Shown here in pieces: positions 3,622 through 46,688 of a DNA stretch of 64,000 nt. Made by a program: the position numbers and the translations under genes. The DNA is from Chloroflexota bacterium (GTDB lineage Bacteria; Chloroflexota; Limnocylindria; Limnocylindrales; CSP1-4), in NCBI GenBank assembly GCA_021787395.1, contig JAJYLZ010000008.1, positions 11,290 through 75,289 on the forward strand. Reading direction: 5' to 3'. The notes below the pieces were generated by a model. It searched no databases and was not told the DNA's origin. It was given only the letters and a program-made list of their open reading frames with translations. Position 1 is the first letter of the stretch. The number at the start of each line of letters is the position of its first letter.

Positions 3622-4655
3622 TGGAACTTGAAGCCGCCCTGCCCGACGGCGTTGCCTTCCGCTCGGGAACGGCCGCCGACTGGCCGCTGCTGGCCCAGCT
3701 CTTCAACGAGGACCATCGGGGCAACGGCATCGACGAGCGGGAGTCGGCCGACAACCTGGCTGGCATGTTCGAGGCCGATCCCAGGTTCGCCATGGACCGC
3801 GACGTGCGCATCGCCGAGGCGCACGGGGAGGCCGTCGGCTTCTCGCTGGGCCGCGTGCGCGAGCGCGACCAGACCCTGGTCGGCGAGACGTGGGGCGCGG
3901 TGGTGCCCGCATGGCGGCGCCGCGGCATCGGGTCCGCGCTCCTGTGGCGGGCGATTGCGGCACTCGAGCCCCTCATGGAGGACGACCCGCGGCCCTGGCC
4001 GCGGGAGCTGCGCAACTGGGCCGACGACGTCGAGACCGGGACCATCGCGCTCTACCGCTCAGCGGGCTACCTCCCGATCAGGTACGGGTTCGCGATGCGC
4101 CGGCCCTTGTCCGGCCAGCTGCCGGAGCACCCGCTGCCGGCGGGCCTCGAGCTCAGGCCCGCGACGGAGCGCCAATCCCGGGCGATCTTCGAGGCCGAGG
4201 CCGAGGCCTTCCGCGACCACTGGGGCCACGAGGAGCCCACCGACGCCCTGTTCGCCTCGTGGTACAGCGATCCCGAGCTCGACCCGAGCCTCTGGGAGGT
4301 GGCCTGGGACGGCGACGAGATCGCGGGTGTCGTGCTCGGGATGATCCGGACTCGCGAGAACGAGGAGCTGGGCGTCCGCCGCGGCTGGCTGGACCGCGTG
4401 TCGGTCCGCCGGCCCTGGCGCGGCCGGGGCCTCGCCAAGGCGCTGTGCGCCGCGTCGTTCCGGGCCCTGCGCGAGCGGGGCATGGACGAGGCGTGGCTGG
4501 GCGTGGACGGCGCGAACCCCACCGGGGCGCTCCAGCTCTACGAGGGGCTCGGCTTCCACGTGGCGCGCCGCTGGACGGTCTACGGCCGGCCGCTCGACCG
4601 ACCTGCCCCGCAGGGCTGGCGGAGCGCCGGCGATCGCGGGACCATGGGGCCATGA
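3621..4655 (+). CDS. tandem-domain GNAT N-acetyltransferase
   Basis: Two acetyl-CoA-binding motifs (WRRRGIG, WRGRGLA) and NPTGALQLYEGLGF; ATGA overlap with rsgA. Confidence 0.85.
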   Translation: MELEAALPDGVAFRSGTAADWPLLAQLFNEDHRGNGIDERESADNLAGMFEADPRFAMDRDVRIAEAHGEAVGFSLGRVRERDQTLVGETWGAVVPAWRRRGIGSALLWRAIAALEPLMEDDPRPWPRELRNWADDVETGTIALYRSAGYLPIRYGFAMRRPLSGQLPEHPLPAGLELRPATERQSRAIFEAEAEAFRDHWGHEEPTDALFASWYSDPELDPSLWEVAWDGDEIAGVVLGMIRTRENEELGVRRGWLDRVSVRRPWRGRGLAKALCAASFRALRERGMDEAWLGVDGANPTGALQLYEGLGFHVARRWTVYGRPLDRPAPQGWRSAGDRGTMGP

Positions 4656-35406: not shown

Positions 35407-36570
35407 TCAGCCGCCCCGCCGCGCCGCGTCCACGAACCGGTCGAACACGGCCAGCGCGTCGAGCGGCCCCGGGGCGCCCTCGGGGTGGTACTGGACGGTC
35501 TCGATCGGCTTCTCCGCGTGGCGGAGGCCCTCGACGGACCGGTCGTTGAGGTTGAGCTGGCTCACGCGGAACCCCGACCCGTCGGGCAGCGTCCCCCCGA
35601 GCACGTGCACCTCGTGGTTCTGCGCGGTCACCTGGACGTAGCCGGTGTCGAGGTCCTGCACCGGGTGGTTCGCCCCGTGGTGGCCGAAGCGGAGGCGGCC
35701 CGTCTCGGCGCCGGCCGCCCGGGCGACGATCTGGTGGCCCAGGCAGATGCCCAGCAGCGGCCGGCCGTCCTCGATGATCCGCTGCGCCAGCGCCACCGGA
35801 CCGGCGAGGCGCGCCGGGTCGCCCGGGCCGGGCGAGAGGACGACGCCGTCCACGTCGTCGGCGAGGACATCGTCCGCGGTCGCCGTGTGGGGGAGGATCC
35901 GGACGCGGGCCCCGCGGCGGCGGAGCGACCGGACGATGTTGGCCTTGAGGCCGAAGTCCACGATGGCGATCAGCGGCGCGTCCGGGTCGTCGCCGAGCTC
36001 GGCCACCTCGGCCGGCGAGACCTGGGCGACGAAGTCCTGGTCCTCCCAGCGCGGCACGGCCCGGGCCATGGCGATCGCCGTGTCGCGGTCGGTGACGCCG
36101 GGCGCGGTGATGACGCCCCGGAGGCAGCCGTTCGCGCGCAGGTGCCGGGCGAGGGCGCGCGTGTCCACGCCCGCGATGGCCGGGATGCCGTAGCCGCGCA
36201 GGAGCGTCGCGAGCTGGCGGGCGTCCTCCAGCACGGCGGCCGTGGCGTGGGCCACCACCAGGCCGCGGAGCCAGGGCCGGGACGACTGGTCGTCGTCCTC
36301 CAGGCGCCCGTAGTTGCCGATCAGCGGATACGTCATCACCACCACCTGCCCCGCGTAGGACGGGTCGGTGGCGATCTCCTGGTAGCCGGTCTGGCTGGTG
36401 TTGACCACCAGGTCGCCGCCCGAGGCCACGGGCGCCCCGAACGCGATGCCGGGGAACACGGTGCCGTCCTCGAGGGCGAGCAGCGCCGGTCCCGCGTCGC
36501 CGACACGCGGATCGACGATCGCGTCGGCGCGCGGCAACGGCGGTCGGTGGGATGACGGTGGGGCGATCAC
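35407..36570 (-). CDS. carA: carbamoyl-phosphate synthase small subunit
   Basis: LEDGT, TGYQE..TDPSY, SPGPGDP, GICLGHQ and QYHPE. Confidence 0.97.
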   Translation of the reverse strand: MIAPPSSHRPPLPRADAIVDPRVGDAGPALLALEDGTVFPGIAFGAPVASGGDLVVNTSQTGYQEIATDPSYAGQVVVMTYPLIGNYGRLEDDDQSSRPWLRGLVVAHATAAVLEDARQLATLLRGYGIPAIAGVDTRALARHLRANGCLRGVITAPGVTDRDTAIAMARAVPRWEDQDFVAQVSPAEVAELGDDPDAPLIAIVDFGLKANIVRSLRRRGARVRILPHTATADDVLADDVDGVVLSPGPGDPARLAGPVALAQRIIEDGRPLLGICLGHQIVARAAGAETGRLRFGHHGANHPVQDLDTGYVQVTAQNHEVHVLGGTLPDGSGFRVSQLNLNDRSVEGLRHAEKPIETVQYHPEGAPGPLDALAVFDRFVDAARRGG

Positions 36571-36627
36571 TCAGATCCCGGCGGTGCGCGGCGCGCGGGC
36601 GCCGGCGGCGGGCAAGCGAAGGTGCAT
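36571..36627 (-). CDS. putative 18-aa leader peptide (MHLRLPAAGARAPRTAGI) abutting carA
   Basis: GGAGG at 36632-36636, ATG at 36627; its TGA directly precedes the carA GTG. Confidence 0.55.
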   Translation of the reverse strand: MHLRLPAAGARAPRTAGI

Positions 36628-36638
36628 GCGGCCTCCTA

Positions 36639-36688
36639 CCCGGCCTCTCCGGACCGGTACGCCGGCCTCACGGGACCGGCTCTCAGGA
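36639..36688 (-). promoter_or_regulatory. two tandem PyrR-binding-type RNA hairpins
   Basis: GCCGGTCCCGTGAGGCCGGC (36680-36661) and CCGGTCCGGAGAGGCCGG (36657-36640) both fit the RGUCCNGNGAGGY loop motif; upstream of carAB. Confidence 0.78.
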
Positions 36689-36695
36689 CGCCCGA

Positions 36696-36704
36696 ACTGT
36701 ACCA
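36696..36704 (-). promoter_or_regulatory. extended -10 promoter TGnTACAGT for carAB
   Basis: Minus-strand TGGTACAGT just upstream of the PyrR hairpins. Confidence 0.6.
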
Positions 36705-36755
36705 CGCGGCAGGGCGGCAGGCCCGGGGGCGGGGCGCTCGCCCGCCCGACGAGGG

Positions 36756-38216
36756 CTACCCCAGCAGGGCCGATGATGCGGGCGGCGCCTCGCCGCCGGC
36801 GCGACCGCGGTCGGGGGGCGAGGGGGGCTCCGGAGCCGGCACCGGCAGCTCGACGCGGAACGCCGCGCCGCCGCCCGGCCGGTTGGCGACGCCGATGCGC
36901 CCGCCGTGGCGGTCCACGATCCACTTGGCGATGGCCAGGCCGAGGCCCGTCCCGCCCGACGGCGCGCCCGGCGCCCGCCAGAACCGGTCGAACACGTGCG
37001 GCATGTCCTGCTCGCGGAGGCCGGGCCCCTGGTCGTCCACCTCCACCGAGGCCACCCCGTTCCCGGAGCGCACGATCACGCTGACCTGGCCGTTCCGGGG
37101 CGAGTGGCGGATCGCGTTGTCCACGAGGATCGTCACCAGCTGGCGCAGCCGCCCGGGGTCGCCGTCGAGCATCGTGGGCTCCGGGTCGACCTCGACGTGC
37201 ACGCCCCGGTCTGCGGCCATCCGCCCGAGCGCACCGGCTGCCTCGAACGCGATGTCGCCGAGGTCCAGCGGCATCCGGTCGAGCGCCACGGCGCCGGAGT
37301 CGGAGCGGGCCAGCAGCAGGAGGTCGTCGACCAGGGCCGTCAGGTGGGCCACCTCGGCGTCGATGTCGTCGAGCGCCTCGCGCTGCTGCCCCACGGCCGC
37401 GTCCGGGTGGCGGGCGAGGTGCTCCAGCGAGGAGCGGATCACCGTGAGCGGCGTGCGCAGCTCGTGGCTGGCGTCGGCGGCGAACTCGCGCTGGCGACGA
37501 AGGGCTCCGCGCTGGGCTTCGAACGACTGCCGGATGGGCACCAGCGCGCGCCGGGCGTAGACGTAGCCGAACAGCACCGAGACCACGACCACCAGCCCGC
37601 CGCCCACCAGCAGCACGGTGACCAGCGACTGCAGCGTCTCGACCTCGACGGACCGGTCCTGGAGGGCCTGCAGGAAGTAGGTCTGGCCGTCCACGCGGTA
37701 CACGAACCGCTGGGTCATCAGGCGGGCCGGGAAGACCGACGTGCCGACGGTGATGTTGACCTCCCGGATGTCGCGCCCGTCGGCCGCCGCGCTCGCTGCG
37801 GCCAGGCTGCCGTCCACGGGCATCCCGGCCAGCGCAGGCGCGGGCTGGCGGTTGAGCTGGACCTGGTTGCCGCTGGCGTCGAAGGCGTAGAGCCAGACGC
37901 TGCCGCGTCCCGTCTGCAGGCCGAACTGCGAGTCCGGCGCGTCCGTGCCGGCACTGCCGTCGGGGCTCGGCTGGCCGGTCAGCGAGGCGACGACCGGGTT
38001 GACCACCGAGTCCAGCTTCGTGACCGAGGCGTTGTACAGGGTGTTGGCGACCACCGCGTACAGCGCGCCGCCGAGCACCAGGAGCACCACCAGCGTGGAG
38101 ACGCCGCTCCACAGGACCAGGCGGCGGCGGGTGTGCGCGATCAGCCGATGCTCGTCGGCCAGCGACTCCTGCTCGGCGCCGTCGTCGCGCGGGTCGACCG
38201 CGATGCCGTCAGCCAT
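36756..38216 (-). CDS. membrane sensor histidine kinase (MprB-like)
   Basis: Two TM helices; ADASHELRTP, N-box DNAIRH, DDQGPG, FDRFWR and GTGLGLAI. Confidence 0.93.
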   Translation of the reverse strand: MADGIAVDPRDDGAEQESLADEHRLIAHTRRRLVLWSGVSTLVVLLVLGGALYAVVANTLYNASVTKLDSVVNPVVASLTGQPSPDGSAGTDAPDSQFGLQTGRGSVWLYAFDASGNQVQLNRQPAPALAGMPVDGSLAAASAAADGRDIREVNITVGTSVFPARLMTQRFVYRVDGQTYFLQALQDRSVEVETLQSLVTVLLVGGGLVVVVSVLFGYVYARRALVPIRQSFEAQRGALRRQREFAADASHELRTPLTVIRSSLEHLARHPDAAVGQQREALDDIDAEVAHLTALVDDLLLLARSDSGAVALDRMPLDLGDIAFEAAGALGRMAADRGVHVEVDPEPTMLDGDPGRLRQLVTILVDNAIRHSPRNGQVSVIVRSGNGVASVEVDDQGPGLREQDMPHVFDRFWRAPGAPSGGTGLGLAIAKWIVDRHGGRIGVANRPGGGAAFRVELPVPAPEPPSPPDRGRAGGEAPPASSALLG

Positions 38217-38895
38217 CGCTCCGGTCGCCCATGCGGTAGCCGACACCGCGGACCGTCTCGATCTGGGAGCCTGCCTCCGCCAGCTTCGTGCGCAGGTAGT
38301 GGACGTAGGCGTCCACGGCATTGGGCGTCACGGCCACGCTGAACGGCCAGGCGTGGTCGAGCAGCTGGTCACGGGTGAGCACCTGGCCCGGATGGCGCAG
38401 GAGCGCCTCGAGGAGCGAGAACTCGCGCGGCGAGAGGTCCACGCTGCGCCCGTTCACGGTGACGCGCCGGGCGGCCTCGTCGAGCGCGATCGCGCCGCAC
38501 TCGAGCCGCGGCTCGGCCCGCCGGGGCCCGGGCTCGGCCCGCCGGGCGAGGGCACGCAGCCGCGCCGCCACCTCCTGGTAGGCGAACGGCTTGACGACGT
38601 AGTCGTCGGCCCCCGCGTCGAGGCCCACCACGCGGTCGTTGATGGTGTCGCGCGCGGTGAGCATCAGGATGGACACGTCCGTGCCCGCCGCGCGGATCCG
38701 CCGCGCGACGTCCAGGCCCGAGATGTCGGGCAGGCCGATGTCGAGGATGACGCAGTCGAGCCCGCCCACGCCGGTGGCGAGCTCGAGGCCGGTGCGGCCG
38801 TCGGGCGCGTGCTCCACGACGTGGCGGTCCTCCTCGAGCAGGCGGGTGAGCGCCCGCGCGAGCCGTTCGTCGTCCTCGACCAGAAGCAGGTGCAT
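38209..38895 (-). CDS. OmpR/PhoB-family response regulator (MprA-like)
   Basis: LLVEDD, LDIGLP, LTAR, GADDYVVKPF, winged helix VRGVGY. Confidence 0.95.
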   Translation of the reverse strand: MHLLLVEDDERLARALTRLLEEDRHVVEHAPDGRTGLELATGVGGLDCVILDIGLPDISGLDVARRIRAAGTDVSILMLTARDTINDRVVGLDAGADDYVVKPFAYQEVAARLRALARRAEPGPRRAEPRLECGAIALDEAARRVTVNGRSVDLSPREFSLLEALLRHPGQVLTRDQLLDHAWPFSVAVTPNAVDAYVHYLRTKLAEAGSQIETVRGVGYRMGDRSDG

Positions 38896-38912
38896 GCGGT
38901 CCCGTACCCTCG

Positions 38913-39200
38913 TCAGGGCAGGACGGCCACGTGGGTGGCCGCGCCCAGCGTTCCGCCGCCCTGGGGCTCGTCGGGCCGGAAGCGTCCGTAGGCCTGCAGG
39001 ACGACGGTCTTGCCGGCAGCCACGTCGGACCGGCTGCCGCTCGTCTGCTGATGGTAGGCGGTGGACGGGCGGGCGCCTACCGTCACGGCGGCACCGTGCA
39101 CCAGCTGGACGGCGAACGAGCCGCCGGTCACGGCGCGCAGCCCCGCCGGACCCGAGCCCCTGGACGGGGCCGGGACCGGCGGGATGGGCGGCTGGGTCAT
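38913..39200 (-). CDS. small paralog of the upstream DUF5666-like domain, without TM helix
   Basis: AGGAG RBS; aligns by eye to the C-terminal domain of 39248-39892. Confidence 0.6.
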   Translation of the reverse strand: MTQPPIPPVPAPSRGSGPAGLRAVTGGSFAVQLVHGAAVTVGARPSTAYHQQTSGSRSDVAAGKTVVLQAYGRFRPDEPQGGGTLGAATHVAVLP

Positions 39201-39247
39201 GGCTGCAATCGCTCCTGCCCGGCGCCGGGGCGCCGGGCGCGGATCCC

Positions 39248-39892
39248 CTACTGGCCCAGGACGGTGATGTCCGTCACGTCCAGCTGCAGGCCGCCGTCGC
39301 CGGGCTGGCCGCTGGGCGCCGGGCCGCCGGACGCCGCCGCGGCGGCGCCGCGGGTGGCGCTGAGCTGGACGTGCGCGCCGACCGTGACGTCCGAGGACGA
39401 CCCCGCCGCCTGGGTGTGGTAGGTCACGGTGCTCGGGACCTGGAGCGTGACGCTCTGGCCGCTGGCGGTCTGGATCGTGATGGAGCCGTTGGACACGGCC
39501 GTCACCTGCCCGTCGATCGAGAGGCCGCCGGCGCCGAACACACCCCCGAAGCCGCGGCCCGCTCCGCCGGCCTCCGGGTTGAAGCTGCCCCGGGCGAAGC
39601 CCGCGAAGCCGCCGTTGGCGAAGTTGCCGCGCGCATTCGTGCTGGCCGGGGCGGTCAGTCGGCCGCCTGCGAAGCCGAGGCCCGCGGCCGCGATCACGAT
39701 CGCGGCGACGAACGCGATGGTCCCGCCCGACGCGCCCTGGCGGGGCCTGGGGCTGGCCGAGGCGGCGATCACCGACGGCGGGATGAACGAGGGGACCGCA
39801 GGCTGCGGCGCGGGGGGCGTCGGCTGGCCCGGCACGGGCCCGGGCTCCGGGTGCGCGAATGGGTTCTGCTGGGGGGCGGGGGGCTGGGTCAC
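39248..39892 (-). CDS. membrane-anchored Gly-rich protein with DUF5666-like OB-type domain
   Basis: Pro-rich N-terminus, one TM helix, GQVTAVSNGSITIQTASG. Confidence 0.7.
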   Translation of the reverse strand: MTQPPAPQQNPFAHPEPGPVPGQPTPPAPQPAVPSFIPPSVIAASASPRPRQGASGGTIAFVAAIVIAAAGLGFAGGRLTAPASTNARGNFANGGFAGFARGSFNPEAGGAGRGFGGVFGAGGLSIDGQVTAVSNGSITIQTASGQSVTLQVPSTVTYHTQAAGSSSDVTVGAHVQLSATRGAAAAASGGPAPSGQPGDGGLQLDVTDITVLGQ

Positions 39893-39983
39893 GGGGTGGG
39901 TCTCCTCTAGAGACGGCAGGGGCGCGACGCGGCGCGCGGCGGGGCGATTCGGACGGGGGCCGGCCGGACGGGGTCGAGAGCGG

Positions 39984-40724
<741 letters not shown>

Positions 40725-40947
40725 GGTCAGCTGCGCGCTCCCGGCGCCCCGCGCCGGGGGCCGGCGCCGGGTCGGCCGACCCGACGGCCGCCGGTGCTGC
40801 CGGTCCCGGTCCGCGCGCGCGACGGGACCCCGACGATGATGGTGTTGGGGCCGTTCAGGCGAGGCCGCATGCGAGTCCTTTCCGGGCGGAGCCGATGGTT
40901 GCAGGATGAGGGCGGATGGCGCTTGCCCAGCATGGTGCCGGGCGCGC

Positions 40948-40964
40948 CTGAAAGCCGTCTGAGA
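40948..40964 (-). promoter_or_regulatory. MprA-type direct-repeat operator TCTCAG-N5-TTTCAG
   Basis: Minus strand; CATGCT -10 lies 13 nt downstream. Confidence 0.7.
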
Positions 40965-41002
40965 GGCGACCCGGGTCGCTCGGCTGTCGAGCCCGCGCGC
41001 CG

Positions 41003-42223
41003 CTAGGCGCCCTGGCCCGCCTGCGCCTTGTCGATCAGCGCCTTGGCGTCGTTGATCGGGATGGCGAAGCCCAGGCCCTGGGCGTTCGTGGACACCGCGG
41101 TGTTGAGCCCGATCACGGCGCCGGTCCCGTCGAGGAGCGGCCCGCCGCTGTTGCCGGGGTTGATCGCCGCGTCCGTCTGGATCAGGTTCTTGAGCGTCGA
41201 GGGGCGCCCGGTGACCTCGTCCCGGACGGTCACGGTCCGGCCCAGGCCCGACACGATCCCGCGGGTCACGGTCTCGGTGTAGGTGCCGAGGGGGCTGCCG
41301 ATCGCGAGCGCGGTCTCGCCCACCTGGATCTTCGAGGAGTCGGCGATCCGCGCCGGGGTGAGCCCCTTGGCGTCGATCTTGATCAGGGCCAGGTCGTTGT
41401 CGTTGGCGATCTGGATCACCGTGGCCGGGTACTGCGTGCCGTCCTCGAGGGCCACCGTCAGCGTCTGGCTGCCCTCGACCACGTGGCGGTTGGTCAGGAT
41501 GTAGCCGTTGGCGGTCAGGATCAGGCCGGAGCCGATCCCCTGCGTCGTGCCGAAGTCGAAGCCGTTGGCGCTGACGCCGTCCGCCGTGATCGTGACGACC
41601 GACTTCTGGGCATCGGCCACGATCGCGGTGATGTCGGTGCTCTGGATCGTCGTGGTGGTCGTGGCCGCGGTCTGGATGGGAGCGGACGACGCCGGCGCGA
41701 GCGTGGCGACGGCGGCCTCCTCGGGGACCAGCTCGTGCACGAGCAGCGCGGTGCCGCCCGAGGCGAGCACCGCCGCCAGGACGCCCACCGAGAGCAGCGT
41801 CCCGATGCCGATGCCGCGCGGACGGCGCTGGGCGGGCAGCGGCGCGCGCTCCGGCGTCGGCGGGAACGGCGCGGCCCAGGGGGCCGGCTCCACGGGCGTG
41901 CTCGGGGTCTCTTCCGGCCGGGCCCAGGCGGGCGCCGGGGGCGTCGGCGGGACGCCGGCGGCCGCCCAGGGGGAGGGTCCGCCCGCCCCGGGCCAGCCCG
42001 GGGGCTGCGAGGGAACGGGGGGCGTGGCGGGTGGCGGCGAGTACGACCACGAGCGGTCGGCGGCCGTCGGCTCGGAGGGGTGCGCCGCCCAGCCGGGCGA
42101 CGGCGCCGCTGCCTGGGGTGCAGACCCTGGCTGGGGGGGAACCGGGGCCTGCGCCTCAGGCAGCGGCGCGGTGTCATCCTGCCCGGAGGGTTCCGGGCTG
42201 GCTGGCGGGAAGGGCAGGGTCAT
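41003..42223 (-). CDS. HtrA/DegP-like trypsin serine protease without PDZ domain
   Basis: Pro-rich N-terminus, TM helix, TNRHVV, DLALIKI and TDAAINPGNSGGPL; ends right after the protease domain. Confidence 0.92.
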   Translation of the reverse strand: MTLPFPPASPEPSGQDDTAPLPEAQAPVPPQPGSAPQAAAPSPGWAAHPSEPTAADRSWSYSPPPATPPVPSQPPGWPGAGGPSPWAAAGVPPTPPAPAWARPEETPSTPVEPAPWAAPFPPTPERAPLPAQRRPRGIGIGTLLSVGVLAAVLASGGTALLVHELVPEEAAVATLAPASSAPIQTAATTTTTIQSTDITAIVADAQKSVVTITADGVSANGFDFGTTQGIGSGLILTANGYILTNRHVVEGSQTLTVALEDGTQYPATVIQIANDNDLALIKIDAKGLTPARIADSSKIQVGETALAIGSPLGTYTETVTRGIVSGLGRTVTVRDEVTGRPSTLKNLIQTDAAINPGNSGGPLLDGTGAVIGLNTAVSTNAQGLGFAIPINDAKALIDKAQAGQGA

Positions 42224-42286
42224 GTGGTCGGGGGCACTCCATGCGGGGACGCGCGGGAGGATTGTGACGCAGTCAACCGCACGCCG

Positions 42287-42303
42287 CTGAGATTGCCCTG
42301 AGA
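42287..42303 (-). promoter_or_regulatory. MprA-type operator TCTCAG-N5-TCTCAG (perfect)
   Basis: Minus strand, upstream of the htrA-like gene. Confidence 0.75.
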
Positions 42304-42340
42304 GAGGCGCCCGCCCGGAGCGGGGTTGAGCCCGCCCGGT

Positions 42341-43129
42341 TCACGCCTCGCGGGGCGCGAGCAGGACCCGGTCCACCAGCTCGGTCCACACCATCCGGTC
42401 GGCCGCCGTGATCGCGAGGGCGCCGAAGCCCGGCTCCGCGGCGACCCAGGCCAGCCCCGCCTCGCCCATGACGAAGCCCGCGGTCGCGTAGGCGTCGGCG
42501 AACGCGAGCGTGGGCCCGATCACGGTCAGGCTGCGCAGGCCGGCCGGCGCAGCCCCGGTCCGCGGATCGACGACATGCGCCCCGCGCTCGTACAGCCCGG
42601 ACGTCGCGACGGCCAGGTCGCGGACCCCCAGCACCGCGGCGGTCGCGTCCGCGCGGCCCGGATGGCGGATGCCGATCCGCCACGGCTCGCCGGGCTCGGG
42701 CTCGCCCGCCGCCACCAGGTCGCCGCCGGCCACGACCTGGAAGTTACGCGCGCCGGCCAGGCGCAGCCTCGCCGCCGCCTCGTCCACCGCCCAGCCCTTG
42801 ACGATGCCGGTCGGGTCGGGCCGGCCGTCCGGGCGGTGGCCCCGCGGGTCGAACGCGCCGCCGGACCGGTCGCGGACCAGGTCGGCGAGGGTGAACATCG
42901 CCTGGACGTCCGAGCTGGCGTCCTGGAACGCGAGCTCGCCCGTGCCCACGCGCGTGACCTCGCTTTCGGGCCGGAACGGGCTGAACCGGCGGTCCACGTC
43001 GTGGAGCCACTCGACGACCGCCTCGATGACGGCGTCCTCGACGAACGGGGCGCGGATGTCGACGGTCACGACCGTGCCCATGACGGGCTCAGTTCGCAGC
43101 TGGCGCGCCGCATGCGCCGGTGAGCTCAC
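42341..43129 (-). CDS. apbE: FAD:protein FMN transferase
   Basis: MGT, DPTGIVKGWAVD, AGGD, ATSGLYERG and ADAYATA; start may be 43081. Confidence 0.9.
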   Translation of the reverse strand: MSSPAHAARQLRTEPVMGTVVTVDIRAPFVEDAVIEAVVEWLHDVDRRFSPFRPESEVTRVGTGELAFQDASSDVQAMFTLADLVRDRSGGAFDPRGHRPDGRPDPTGIVKGWAVDEAAARLRLAGARNFQVVAGGDLVAAGEPEPGEPWRIGIRHPGRADATAAVLGVRDLAVATSGLYERGAHVVDPRTGAAPAGLRSLTVIGPTLAFADAYATAGFVMGEAGLAWVAAEPGFGALAITAADRMVWTELVDRVLLAPREA

Positions 43130-43130
43130 G

Positions 43131-43202
43131 TCACGGCTCCAGGCTGTCGAGCGCCGCCTGCAGCGACGGCGCGCAGGCGCCGCTCGTGTGCGTGGCGCGG
43201 CC
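43131..43202 (-). pseudogene. C-terminal remnant of an FMN-binding (flavinylated) protein gene
   Basis: Startless frame reads GRATHTSGACAPSLQAALD*, similar to the FMN_bind C-terminus SGATxTSxGYxxSLQxALD; directly upstream of apbE. Confidence 0.5.
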
Positions 43203-43264
43203 GCGGCACGGAGCGGGCTCGGGGCGCGGGTGCGGCGGTCACCCCCGGATCGTCCGGCGGGCGG

Positions 43265-43281
43265 ATGAGGCCCCGCTGAGA
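43265..43281 (-). promoter_or_regulatory. MprA-type operator TCTCAG-N5-CCTCAT
   Basis: Minus strand, upstream of the remnant and apbE. Confidence 0.55.
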
Positions 43282-43288
43282 GCCGACC

Positions 43289-45310
43289 TCAGGCGGCCCC
43301 CGAGCAGTCGTACAGGCTGCCGCCGCCCGCCCCGGCGACCTGGCGGCAGTGGCCCTGGACCCAAGCGTTGCGCTCGCCGGCCACGCTCCCCTGCCCGTCC
43401 CCGCCGAAGAACCCGCCGGGTCCCGCTCCCCGCCCGCCGAGCAGGACGTACCGCAGCTGCCCGTCGTGCACGTACTGCTGGAGCTGCTCCAGGGTCGGGA
43501 CCGGGTCGCTGCCCATGAAGCCGCCCATCGCCATGACCGGGACGCCGGACGCGAGCTGGAGCGGTCCGGCCGCGCTGGCCGACGAGACCGCCACCAGCCA
43601 GGTGGCCGAGCCCCGGTTGGCGACGAGGTAGTCAACCAGGGCGCGGTCGGTGCCGCCGGGATCGCCGCGGAAGCCGGCGAAGCCACCTGGCCCAGGCAAG
43701 CCACTCGGCCCGCCGCCGACGGGCCCGGCCGCCGGGTCGCCGCCCGTGATCGCCCGGCCGACCGTCGCCGCCGTCCAGACGGACGGCCCGACCAGGATCG
43801 CCGCCAGGCCCGCCGCCGCCGCACCCTGCGCGATCCGCCGCGCGCCCCGGTCGCCCGGGACCGCCGGCATCACCAGGATGATCGACGCGGCCAGCGCCAC
43901 GCCCAGGGCCCCGATGCCGAGCCCGGGCAGGAACGCGGGCGCGCGCCCCAGCAGCTGGAGCTGCCACCAGGCGGTGGCGAGCAGGATCAGCGCGAGCAGC
44001 GCCCCGGCCCACGCCACTCGGTCGCGGAGGCGCCACGCCTCGACCAGGCCGGCGCCGGTGAGCGCGGCTGCGGCCGGCGCGATGGCCGCCGAGTAGTACG
44101 GGTGCGCGATCCCGCCCATGAGGCTGAACACCAGGATGTGGACCACGGCCCAGCTGCCCCACAGCAGGAGGCCGGCCCGGCGCCCGTCCCGGCGCGGGGC
44201 CCGCCAGCGGGCAGCCAGACCCACCGCGAGGCCGATCCCGGCCGACGGCAGCAGCCAGCTGATCTCCGTCCCCCACTCCGCGTTGAACATGCGGAGCAGA
44301 CCCGGCGCGCCGCCGAAGCTCCCGCCGGGGCCGCCGAAGCCGCGGGCCGCGAACCCGCCCGGTCCGCCGGGCAGTCCGCCGGGGCCGCTGGGGGCACCGC
44401 CGGTCCGGCCGAAGATGCGGCCGAGCCCGTCGTAGCCGAACACCAGGTCGAGGACGGAGTTGTCGGTGCTGCCGCCGATGTACGGGCGCGAGCTCGCGGG
44501 GATCAGCTGCACGATCGCCACCCACCAGCCCGAGGCGGCCAGCGTGGCCGCGGCGGCGAGGGTCAGCCCGGCCAGCCGCCGCCGCAGGCTGCCGCGACCC
44601 GCCGCCAGGTAGGTCAGCGCGAACCCCGGCAGCACCAGGTACGCCTGGAGGTACTTGGTCAGGAAGCCCAGACCCACGAGGGCGCCGGCCAGGGCGAGCC
44701 AGGCGCGGCGGTCCGACTCGAGCGCCCGGACGAGCGCCCAGGCGGCCGCCACCAGCAGCAGGACCAGCAGGGCGTCCGGGTTGTTGTAGCGGAACATGAG
44801 CGCGGCGACCGGGGTCAGGGCCAGCGCCAGGCCGGCGATCACGGCCGCCGGGAGGCCGAACTGCCGCCGGACTGCGTCGTACAGGAGGACGGCTGCGGCC
44901 ACCCCGCACAGGGCCTCCGGGAGCAGGACCGCGAACGGGCTCAGCCCGAGCGCCCGCACCGAGAGGCCCATCAGCCACAGGGCGGCCGGCGGCTTGTCCA
45001 CCGTGATGAACCCGGCCGGGTCGAGGGACCCGAAGAACATCGCCGACCAGCTCTGGCCGGCAGCCTGCGCGGCGGCCGAGTAGTAGGTGTTCGCGTAGCC
45101 GCTGACGTCCAGCGCCCACAGGCAGACCGCAGCCGCCAGCAGGGCCACGAGGACGGCGCCCGCCCAGGCGGACGGCTCCAGCGCGCCGCGGGCCGCCAGC
45201 GCGATCCTGGGCGCCGAGCCGGCACGCCCCGGCTCGCGAACCGGCGATGGAGACATGGGAGCAGAGAGGCTCAAGGGCGGAGACCGGTGCCGGACAGACG
45301 TTCGCGGCAC
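43289..45310 (-). CDS. ArnT/PMT-like GT-C glycosyltransferase (family 39)
   Basis: YANTYY, VDKPP, RYNNPD, GFLTKYLQA and many TM helices; start may be 45256. Confidence 0.9.
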   Translation of the reverse strand: MPRTSVRHRSPPLSLSAPMSPSPVREPGRAGSAPRIALAARGALEPSAWAGAVLVALLAAAVCLWALDVSGYANTYYSAAAQAAGQSWSAMFFGSLDPAGFITVDKPPAALWLMGLSVRALGLSPFAVLLPEALCGVAAAVLLYDAVRRQFGLPAAVIAGLALALTPVAALMFRYNNPDALLVLLLVAAAWALVRALESDRRAWLALAGALVGLGFLTKYLQAYLVLPGFALTYLAAGRGSLRRRLAGLTLAAAATLAASGWWVAIVQLIPASSRPYIGGSTDNSVLDLVFGYDGLGRIFGRTGGAPSGPGGLPGGPGGFAARGFGGPGGSFGGAPGLLRMFNAEWGTEISWLLPSAGIGLAVGLAARWRAPRRDGRRAGLLLWGSWAVVHILVFSLMGGIAHPYYSAAIAPAAAALTGAGLVEAWRLRDRVAWAGALLALILLATAWWQLQLLGRAPAFLPGLGIGALGVALAASIILVMPAVPGDRGARRIAQGAAAAGLAAILVGPSVWTAATVGRAITGGDPAAGPVGGGPSGLPGPGGFAGFRGDPGGTDRALVDYLVANRGSATWLVAVSSASAAGPLQLASGVPVMAMGGFMGSDPVPTLEQLQQYVHDGQLRYVLLGGRGAGPGGFFGGDGQGSVAGERNAWVQGHCRQVAGAGGGSLYDCSGAA

Positions 45311-45383
45311 TCTCGGTGGGGAGGAGAGGAGGGTTGCGGAGCCACCGGGAGTGCCGCGTTGGTGCCCAGTACAGCGCCAGCCC

Positions 45384-45400
45384 CTGAGAAGGCCATGAGA
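45384..45400 (-). promoter_or_regulatory. MprA-type operator TCTCAT-N5-TCTCAG
   Basis: Minus strand, upstream of the GT39 gene. Confidence 0.65.
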
Positions 45401-45410
45401 GCCGGCGGCG

Positions 45411-45866
45411 TCAGGCGCCAGCCTTGTACGGATACGTCACCCAGCCGTCCACGGTGGCGGCATAGTGGTCAGGGCGGCCCGGGACCCGCGACCGTCCTGG
45501 CTTGTAGTGCAGCACCGCCGAGACGGGCTCCGCGCCCGCCATGCGGACCCGGCCAAGGACCTCGGTCATCGTCTCGCCGGTCTCCCAGACCTCGTCCACC
45601 ACGAGCACGCGCTTGCCGCTGAGCAGCGCCGCGTCGGCGAAGTGGAGCACGAGGGGTTCGGGGTGGGTGCCGCCCTCGGAGCGGTAGAACTCCACCCCCG
45701 CCACCAGGATCTCGCGCAGGTCGAGGCGATAGGCGAGCATCCCGGCCGGCACCAGGCCGCCGCGCGTGATCGCGAGCACGAGGTCGTGCTCGCGCCCCAC
45801 CTCCGCCGCCAGGGTGGCGACGAGCTGGTCGAGATCGTCCCAGGTCAGGAGCAGCGAATCCGGCAC
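45411..45866 (-). CDS. purine phosphoribosyltransferase (Gpt-like)
   Basis: AITRGGLVP and PRPP motif VVDEVWETGET; GTG 6 nt after a CATGAT -10. Confidence 0.85.
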   Translation of the reverse strand: MPDSLLLTWDDLDQLVATLAAEVGREHDLVLAITRGGLVPAGMLAYRLDLREILVAGVEFYRSEGGTHPEPLVLHFADAALLSGKRVLVVDEVWETGETMTEVLGRVRMAGAEPVSAVLHYKPGRSRVPGRPDHYAATVDGWVTYPYKAGA

Positions 45867-45911
45867 GCCCCCATCATGCGGCACGGGCCGGGCACGGTGC
45901 GACGCCCAGCG

Positions 45912-46688
45912 TCAGCCGGCGGGACCCGGAACCTCCGCGGCCGGCGGCGAGAGGAGCGGCGAGGCGGGCGCGCTCGGCGAGGGCGTCGCGCTGGGCGCGG
46001 GCGACACCATCGACGCCCCGCCGATGTCGTGGCACAGGACGCAGGTGTCGTCACCGCGCAGCGCATGGTCGATCGGCAGCGCCCCCACGCTCGACGACTG
46101 GTGGCAGTCGCGGCACTTGAGGTTCTGGGGGTCCGGGTGCGGCTTGATCGGCGGCGGGGACGGGTTGGGCTTGTGGCACAGCTCGCAGTCGTTCTGGTTC
46201 CGCCCGACCATCGAGGTCGGCAGGTGGGCGACGGAGCCGTGGCAGTCGAGGCAGGGCTTGTTGAGCGCGGCGTGCGCCTGGGTGATCGCCGGTCCCTGCA
46301 CGGGCTCCTTGTGGCAGTTGGTGCACTCGCTCTCCGGGATGCCGTCGTGGCCCGGCGCCGTCCTGCCCAGCTCCTCGTTGGTGTGGCAGGTCAGGCAGGC
46401 CGTGAAGCCGGCCAGCGGGTGGCCCATGGCGGGGATCGTCTTGACGGCCGCTGAGCCGCCGCCCTCGTGGCACAGCACGCACTGCGCCGAGGTGGGGATG
46501 TGCGCGATGCCCATCTGGAACAGGCCCCCCGACGGCGAGGCCGCGGCGGCGCCCGTGTCGGCCGGGACCGAGGATCGGGTCGGGATCAGCTGGAGCCAGT
46601 TGGCGACCATCAGCGCGGCCAGCATGGCCACCATCGTGAGGTTCAGCAGGATCAGGACGCGGAGCGTCCGGTCCAGTCGCCGTCTCAT
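45912..46688 (-). CDS. membrane-anchored multiheme cytochrome c (7 CxxCH)
   Basis: CVLCH, CLTCH, CTNCH, CLDCH, CELCH, CRDCH, CVLCH; N-terminal hydrophobic helix; ATGA overlap with the protease gene. Confidence 0.9.
   Translation of the reverse strand: MRRRLDRTLRVLILLNLTMVAMLAALMVANWLQLIPTRSSVPADTGAAAASPSGGLFQMGIAHIPTSAQCVLCHEGGGSAAVKTIPAMGHPLAGFTACLTCHTNEELGRTAPGHDGIPESECTNCHKEPVQGPAITQAHAALNKPCLDCHGSVAHLPTSMVGRNQNDCELCHKPNPSPPPIKPHPDPQNLKCRDCHQSSSVGALPIDHALRGDDTCVLCHDIGGASMVSPAPSATPSPSAPASPLLSPPAAEVPGPAG

Follow-up and report, generated by a model that had tools for sequence, protein, structure and literature searches.

The window analysed here is a 64-kb stretch of DNA (G+C content 75%) from a Chloroflexota genome of the class Limnocylindria (contig JAJYLZ010000008.1); the DNA runs that contain it come from a mine-drainage metagenome. 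Between positions 36756 and 45400 its minus strand carries a cluster of genes, among them those of an OmpR-family two-component system, and in this cluster four copies of a 17-bp direct repeat (boxes 1 to 4) stand at the heads of transcription units (Table 1). Box 4, preceded by a minus-strand phosphoribosyltransferase gene recognised by Pfam, heads the gene of a membrane glycosyltransferase of the GT39 type. Box 3 lies ahead of the remnant of a ferric-reductase gene and apbE, box 2 ahead of the gene of an HtrA-like protease, and box 1 ahead of an operon that ends in the genes of the response regulator and the sensor histidine kinase. A first-pass annotation, made from the letters alone, had called the GT39, apbE, HtrA-like, ABC ATPase, OmpR-family regulator and histidine kinase genes, and Pfam confirmed all of these calls. 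It had also listed the four boxes, which were all found again on the minus strand, and interpreted them as a self-contained regulon similar to that of the mycobacterial MprAB system.

Direct-repeat boxes in the window and in related loci

The consensus of the boxes is TCTCAK-N5-YYTCAK, a direct repeat with a period of 11 bp. The degenerate pattern of the first-pass annotation has four matches in the window against 0.12 expected, but the pattern had been drawn up after the sites were seen; this comparison is biased and fairer tests were added. A weight matrix was trained on 31 sites, all taken from relatives, with the window sites left out. With this matrix the four boxes scored 18.6-27.7 bits and the next best position in the 64 kb scored 9.0 bits, while first-order Markov simulations gave an expectation of 0.33 chance matches of at least 14 bits. 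The hexamer TCTCAG occurs seven times on the two strands of the window, about 13 copies being expected from the composition, and five of the seven lie inside boxes. A lone TCTCAG at 36681-36686 on the plus strand was considered as a fifth site and rejected: it has no partner half-site, is read from the other strand and lies past the stop codon of the kinase gene, in the leader of another gene.

The matrix was then applied, with a cut-off of 14 bits, to 20 related loci (376 kb) and 57 unrelated loci (976 kb). Of the 54 matches in the related loci, 52 lay on the gene strand, and the unrelated loci gave 17 matches, spread over both strands. The boxes recur in the 20 related loci in the same orientation and in the same intergenic positions, down to a kinase identity of 46%. 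Where the flanking DNA of the relatives has diverged, the half-sites are unchanged, which is the phylogenetic footprint of a real cis-element. Conservation in relatives had been proposed in the first-pass annotation as a check on the boxes; together with the gap in matrix scores and the strand bias, the result upheld its view that the boxes are real cis-elements heading transcription units. Within the 64-kb window and the flanks of the related loci, the regulon was also self-contained.

In nearly all related loci a box stands before the HtrA gene. Other boxes precede the gene of a 457-amino-acid protein with Ferric_reduct, FAD_binding_8 and NAD_binding_1 domains (Pfam), the gene of an FMN-binding protein that is followed by apbE, GT39 genes, and the gene of a YceI protein. 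The autoregulatory position is occupied in two ways. The box lies either before the HlyD adaptor gene that opens an operon of the order HlyD-ABC-MacB permease-DUFa-DUFb-regulator-kinase, or directly before the regulator gene (L008, L011, L015, L019 and L020). Counterparts of individual window boxes could be identified: that of box 1 is identical in L001, where it lies ahead of an intact HlyD gene, that of box 3 heads the ferric-reductase gene of the relatives, and the position of box 4 after the stop codon of the phosphoribosyltransferase gene is kept in L001 and L002.

Table 1. Boxes, promoter elements and genes of the cluster (window coordinates)
Feature	Position	Strand	Description
Box 1	40964-40948	minus	TCTCAGACGGCTTTCAG, 19.8 bits; heads operon ending in regulator and kinase
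Box 2	42303-42287	minus	TCTCAGGGCAATCTCAG, 27.0 bits; heads HtrA gene
Box 3	43281-43265	minus	TCTCAGCGGGGCCTCAT, 18.6 bits; ahead of ferric-reductase remnant and ApbE
Box 4	45400-45384	minus	TCTCATGGCCTTCTCAG, 27.7 bits; heads GT39 unit
-10-like hexamer CACCAT	40932..40937	minus	10 nt after box 1
Hexamer TTGACT	42271..42276	minus	10 nt after box 2; near-invariant in HtrA promoters of relatives
-10-like hexamer GACGAT	43249..43254	minus	10 nt after box 3; GTG 6 nt later, the geometry of a leaderless gene
-10-like hexamer TGTACT	45368..45373	minus	10 nt after box 4
Leader stem-loop	45303..45358	minus	16-17 bp stem, CCUCC-rich loop of 8-22 nt
GT39/PMT_2 + YkcB_C membrane glycosyltransferase	43289..45256	minus	PF13231 7e-32, PF24878 4e-29; start may be TTG at 45274
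Ferric-reductase-like remnant, 38 codons	43126..43242	minus	Full gene in relatives: Ferric_reduct+FAD_binding_8+NAD_binding_1
ApbE flavin transferase	42341..43129	minus	PF02424 2.7e-43
HtrA-like serine protease	41003..42223	minus	Pro-rich N-terminal tail, one transmembrane helix, trypsin domain
HlyD-family adaptor remnant, 47 codons	40727..40870	minus	About 1.36 kb deleted relative to L001
MacB-type ABC ATPase	39984..40724	minus	Pfam; intact
DUFa, small beta-barrel protein	39248..39892	minus	Predicted membrane anchor: Pro-rich tail, transmembrane helix, Gly-rich linker, beta domain
DUFb, small protein	38913..39200	minus	No family match
OmpR/PhoB-family response regulator	38209..38895	minus	PF00072 3e-25, PF00486 1e-25; recognition helix TPNAVDAYVHYLRTKL
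Sensor histidine kinase	36756..38216	minus	Transmembrane helix, PAS/PDC-like periplasmic domain, transmembrane helix, HisKA, HATPase

Promoter layout, regulator and cluster genes

When the sites of the relatives were aligned, a hexamer T[A/T]NACT was found exactly 10 nt past the box (offset 27-32), its last T being present in 86% of the sites. This -10-like hexamer had not been part of the search pattern. A hexamer stands at the same distance after each of the four window boxes, and no sigma-70 -35/-10 pair was detected anywhere between 36500 and 46000. PhoB acts at pho boxes, direct repeats of about 11-bp period that serve in place of the -35 element, 10 bp upstream of the -10 element. Here, too, the box falls where a -35 would be expected, at 10 nt from the -10 hexamer, which argues for class II activation, and the regulator of the cluster fits this layout, with a tandem direct repeat about 10 bp upstream of the -10 and without a -35 consensus. 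The Escherichia coli PhoB system and the window system are thus alike in the tandem repeats, the replaced -35 and the type of regulator (an OmpR/PhoB-family winged-helix protein), but they differ in half-site sequence and signal. A further difference concerns the transcripts. In the ferric-reductase genes of the relatives, and in their regulator genes that directly adjoin a box, the start codon lies 22-26 nt past the box and 6-7 nt past the hexamer. This distance from the hexamer implies leaderless mRNAs, and several target genes of the window-type system appear to be leaderless.

In the HtrA promoters of the closest relatives TTGACT is followed, 4 nt on, by CACAAT, and either hexamer may be the -10 element. 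Besides these two choices, another sigma factor may read the HtrA promoter.

The stem-loop in the GT39 leader begins a few nucleotides past the predicted start of transcription and would occupy the very 5' end of the GT39 transcript. Its folding energy was -45.9 kcal/mol (z -2.95), and in the covariation analysis 2 of 16 pairs were compensatory. Box and hairpin have been retained as a pair in L001, L002, L007 and L008, including those of them from which GT39 has been deleted. Rfam returned no family for it or for anything else in 36000-46500. Possible roles are stabilisation of the 5' end and regulation through the leader.

The regulator of the cluster is the only OmpR-family regulator encoded in the 64 kb, and its best matches in the PDB are PrrA, PhoP, RegX3 and MtrA. 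Tandem direct repeats with an 11-bp period are the targets of head-to-tail winged-helix dimers. The recognition helix TPNAVDAYVHYLRTKL is invariant in all loci with TCTCA boxes, and in L020, where the boxes read TTTCA, the recognition helix is TPNTVDAFVTFLRRKL. The sole OmpR gene, its adjacency to the boxes, the covariation of helix and box and the form of the repeat make a good but not complete case, built on sequence comparison, for assigning the boxes to the cluster regulator.

For the kinase, a PAS/PDC-like periplasmic region was predicted between two transmembrane helices with a mean predicted local distance difference test score (pLDDT) of 79 and weak similarity to WalK. HAMP gave no match to the kinase even at E values up to 5. 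Its closest relatives (46-78% identity) all come from Chloroflexota metagenome-assembled genomes labelled Limnocylindria or Limnocylindrales; beyond these the similarity is restricted to the catalytic core. An actinobacterial origin of the window, to which its G+C content of 75% had pointed, was dismissed on account of these Chloroflexota relatives. In the HtrA-like protease about 135 amino acids of Pro-rich cytoplasmic tail precede the single transmembrane helix; the protein stops directly behind the protease domain, and Pfam found no PDZ domain in it. Two small genes of the operon had been described as DUF5666-like. This did not hold for DUFb, which matched neither DUF5666 nor any other Pfam family, and for DUFa it was reduced to a sub-threshold hint: DUFa scored 15.9 bits (E 0.017) against DUF5666 (PF18914), whose cut-off of 27 was not reached. 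The predicted structure of DUFa was of low confidence (pLDDT 55) and OB-like, without a significant fold match. None of the NCBIfam equivalog cut-offs was reached by the regulator, the kinase, the protease or ApbE.

Comparison with the closest relative, L001, which is collinear with the window at about 80% DNA identity, located two deletions in the autoregulatory operon. The window lacks L001 4968-6328, comprising most of the HlyD gene, and L001 7174-8312 (about 1.14 kb), which encodes the MacB_PCD/FtsX permease; the latter junction lies in the region 39893-39983. The HlyD-ATPase-MacB trio is complete in L001. In the window the ABC ATPase of the operon is an orphan, and no other intact part of a MacAB-type tripartite exporter was found there. 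The ferric-reductase and FMN-binding genes present in L004, L009 and L018 have likewise been deleted. Genes of the PF01794/FMN-binding/ApbE trio stand together in L003-L006, L009, L014, L015, L018 and L019; the window keeps ApbE only, without a neighbouring substrate gene. The suggestion that in this genome the box circuit drives extracytoplasmic flavinylation was therefore given up, because ApbE is the remnant of a module, and it applies to the relatives or to the ancestral cluster instead. ApbE of the window starts right at the conserved MGT core, and no signal peptide was seen by eye. Other parts have been lost among the relatives: L001 lacks ApbE, and L002, L007 and L008 lack GT39.

Comparison with MprAB and other systems

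An MprA sequence served only as bait to fetch database proteins that their source had named 'response regulator MprA'. The reference mprA locus obtained in this way (L081, 12.7 kb) belongs to the environmental species Mycolicibacterium celeriflavum and has the gene order rpmF-mprA-mprB-pepD-moaB2, pepD coding for a protein with Trypsin and PDZ domains. When the matrix trained on Chloroflexota was run over L081, two matches of at least 6 bits were obtained in the 12.7 kb, one upstream of mprA and one upstream of pepD. The site directly upstream of mprA is TCTCAGGTCACTCTCAG, followed after 10 nt by GACACT, and that upstream of pepD is TCTAAGTGGATTCTCAG, followed after 10 nt by CACTGT. MprA reportedly binds, in work of He and Zahrt from 2005, at TCTCAG-type repeats. 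The two systems therefore agree in the operator TCTCAG-N5-TCTCAG, its 11-bp period, its orientation and its distance of 10 nt from a -10-like hexamer, and the designation of the window boxes as MprA-type proved apt. In the actinobacterial MprA-like loci L052 and L059 the box is followed by 10 nt, a hexamer, 6 nt and GTG. In L081 (5968-6010) the box, 10 nt, GACACT and 6 nt lead to a GTG two codons inside the annotated start of mprA. This suggests that the M. celeriflavum mprA transcript may be leaderless and begin at residue 3 of the annotated protein. The Corynebacterium glutamicum MprA motif TKTTAAGAAM was also compared with the boxes and discarded as loose and a poor match.

The systems are also alike in the placement of the sites. 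In both, a box precedes the operon of the regulator itself and another precedes an HtrA-family protease gene, and both show the leaderless geometry at the regulator. At this level the predicted autoregulation and control of an HtrA-like protease were recovered, box 1 heading the regulator-kinase operon and box 2 the HtrA gene. In mycobacteria pepD is directly regulated, and up-regulated, by MprAB (PMC3062566).

The proteins themselves are less similar. The window regulator is 43% identical to MprA (168-180 bits in phmmer), whereas MprA scored 230 bits against Mycobacterium tuberculosis PhoP, 219 against PrrA and 253 against the Limnocylindria regulator of locus L035. Since PhoP, PrrA and the L035 regulator are all closer to MprA, the window regulator was ruled out as an MprA orthologue. 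The JGI annotation is in line with this: close homologues of the window regulator are named 'OmpR family response regulator', never MprA, and true homologues are named MprA. The kinase and MprB share 33% identity in the catalytic core only (residues 219-458); the window kinase has no HAMP match and its sensor is unrelated. The gene order mprA-mprB-pepD-moaB2 of Actinobacteria is absent from the Chloroflexota window, where HtrA lies upstream of the regulator operon and no moaB2 follows, and PepD has a PDZ domain that the window protease lacks. The targets differ as well. Those seen in the window and its relatives are clustered locally and include GT39, ApbE/MsrQ-like, MacAB-like and YceI genes. 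In mycobacteria the targets of MprAB include sigma-factor genes. Thus, of the features of MprAB, the operator and the site placement expected for autoregulation and an HtrA target were recovered, and orthology of the regulator, the kinase, the gene order and the PDZ domain were not. As judged from these comparisons, the window system probably resembles MprAB in its mode of action and has the same operator, but its regulator belongs to a lineage of its own.

Locus L035 carries at 4003-4070 the repeat TCTTAG-N5-TCTTAG followed by 10 nt, CTAGAC, 7 nt and a GTG start, with a divergent box on the other strand. The operator type seems to be common to a wider regulator clade, by ancestry or by convergence.

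The envelope-stress two-component systems CpxAR and CssRS control HtrA proteases (DegP and HtrA/HtrB, respectively). Their logic is that of the window system: the membrane kinase has its sensor outside the cytoplasm, the regulator is of the OmpR family, an HtrA protease is a target and the system is autoregulated. Their operators differ from the window boxes, and they are not known to be linked to flavinylation or GT39 genes. MsrQ-like flavinylated clusters show wide conservation among Actinobacteria and are uncommon in other groups (Meheust et al. 2021, PMC8238504). The relatives of the window resemble these in grouping PF01794+PF00175 ferric-reductase-like, FMN-binding and apbE genes. They differ in belonging to Limnocylindria and in having a dedicated two-component operator; in the window apbE alone is retained.

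A candidate envelope-stress circuit and its alternatives

The reading that we favour, with a probability of about 0.75, is that the cluster regulator binds the boxes and activates the four units, forming a circuit for envelope stress or maintenance. The membrane kinase would phosphorylate the adjacent OmpR-family regulator, and the phosphorylated regulator would bind TCTCA[G/T]-N5-TCTCA[G/T] as a head-to-tail dimer. With the repeat standing in for the -35 element and a weak -10 following 10 nt on, the bound regulator would recruit RNA polymerase in the manner of PhoB-type class II activation. The units switched on would be that of the GT39 membrane glycosyltransferase, through its structured 5' leader; that of ApbE, behind the remnant of what was a leaderless ferric-reductase gene; that of the membrane-anchored, PDZ-less HtrA-like protease; and that of the ABC ATPase, two small membrane or periplasmic proteins, the regulator and the kinase, the last providing positive feedback. 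In the relatives the targets would further include YceI, the NAD(P)H-linked MsrQ-like/FMN-binding/ApbE module, which is intact there, and the full HlyD-MacB exporter. The assignment to envelope stress or maintenance follows from the membrane or extracytoplasmic nature of the products and from the periplasmic PAS/PDC-like sensor of the kinase.

Several observations weigh against this scheme. The TTGACT hexamer of the HtrA promoters is without the usual A at position 2, which makes the promoter layout there uncertain. With the cluster partly decayed in the window, the circuit may have lost the function of some of its parts there. Because the regulator shares just 43% identity with MprA, and the L035 type is closer, identity of the operator does not prove which protein binds it. 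In the metatranscriptomes of the same study nothing came from the locus, all matches being short (about 40 nt) and from other organisms.

A serious, if tentative, alternative keeps the same wiring but replaces general protein-folding stress as the trigger by redox, oxidant or metal damage in the envelope, making the system an analogue of E. coli HprSR-MsrPQ or CusSR. In E. coli HprSR controls msrPQ, and in the relatives boxes head the MsrQ-like (PF01794+PF00175)/FMN-binding/ApbE module. The origin of the sample from mine drainage would suit such a trigger, and so would a weak CusF-like match of DUFa from L001 (E 0.021). The best curated match of the kinase is the heavy-metal sensor kinase subfamily, but it is below the cut-off, as are all other curated families. 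Moreover, the operator is unlike the palindromic CusR/HprR box, and in the window the regulator, the kinase, HtrA and all four boxes have outlasted the redox module. If the trigger is left aside, the question is which protein acts at the boxes. They might be bound by a regulator encoded elsewhere, such as an MprA-like paralogue of the L035 type, the local system being merely a target. The higher score of the L035 regulator against MprA (253 bits, about 171 for the window regulator) points in this direction, and operators identical to real MprA sites would suit a true MprA orthologue. However, the L035 box is TCTTAG-N5-TCTTAG and the L035 locus is without any TCTCAG, while in all relatives the boxes of the window type go with the cluster regulator, in many cases standing 22-26 nt ahead of the start codon of its gene. 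In L020 a changed helix is paired with a changed box, and the 64 kb contain no second OmpR-family gene. Binding by a foreign regulator was accordingly judged improbable.

Equally unlikely, in our estimation, is that the cluster regulator binds the boxes but represses, so that an inactive kinase would leave the genes on. Repression is within the repertoire of OmpR-family proteins and the sites are near the core promoter, although nothing speaks directly for repression. The sites lie upstream of the -10 hexamer at the place of the -35 and not over the -10, there is no -35 consensus, and the same layout is found at mprA and pepD, which MprAB up-regulates. Hardly any weight was given to the view that the repeats are not operators at all but arose by chance, are remnants of a repeat element or form part of a promoter for an alternative sigma factor. 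The choice of the first pattern after the sites had been seen, and the unusual TTGACT of the HtrA promoters, would be compatible with it. The matrix derived from relatives alone, however, separates the boxes (at least 18.6 bits) from everything else (9.0 bits), the boxes are conserved amid diverged flanks in about 20 genomes with a strand bias of 52:2, and one hexamer repeated directly with an 11-bp period is the mark of tandem winged-helix binding and not of a sigma factor. Activation of the four units by the cluster regulator therefore remains the preferred reading.

What emerges is a real, locally clustered and conserved OmpR-family two-component regulon in Limnocylindria. It is of a known type, an envelope system with an HtrA target and autoregulation. 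The window genome itself is less telling than its relatives, half of the regulon having been deleted from it. Neither the MprA operator nor its promoter layout is restricted to Actinobacteria or to orthologues of MprA, a point to be heeded when a motif is used to carry regulons over from one species to another. A more speculative extension, put forward as a possibility that we would not yet bet on, is that the TCT[C/T]AG-N5 repeat followed by 10 nt and the -10 (often with another 6 nt and a leaderless start) is an ancient promoter code of paralogous OmpR-family regulators, used in Actinobacteria by MprA and in two lineages of Chloroflexota. In Limnocylindria this code would tie HtrA, GT39, MacAB-like export and the NAD(P)H-driven MsrQ-like module into one inducible envelope-repair regulon. 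If true, this would give a first hint, from regulation, at what the uncharacterised MsrQ-like flavinylated systems do, and the link suggests a place for these electron-transfer systems in the response to envelope stress or in envelope repair. Limnocylindria are abundant uncultured Chloroflexota of soil and freshwater, for which, to our knowledge, essentially no regulation has been established experimentally. For this group the cluster provides a well-defined operator, a promoter geometry and a set of targets.

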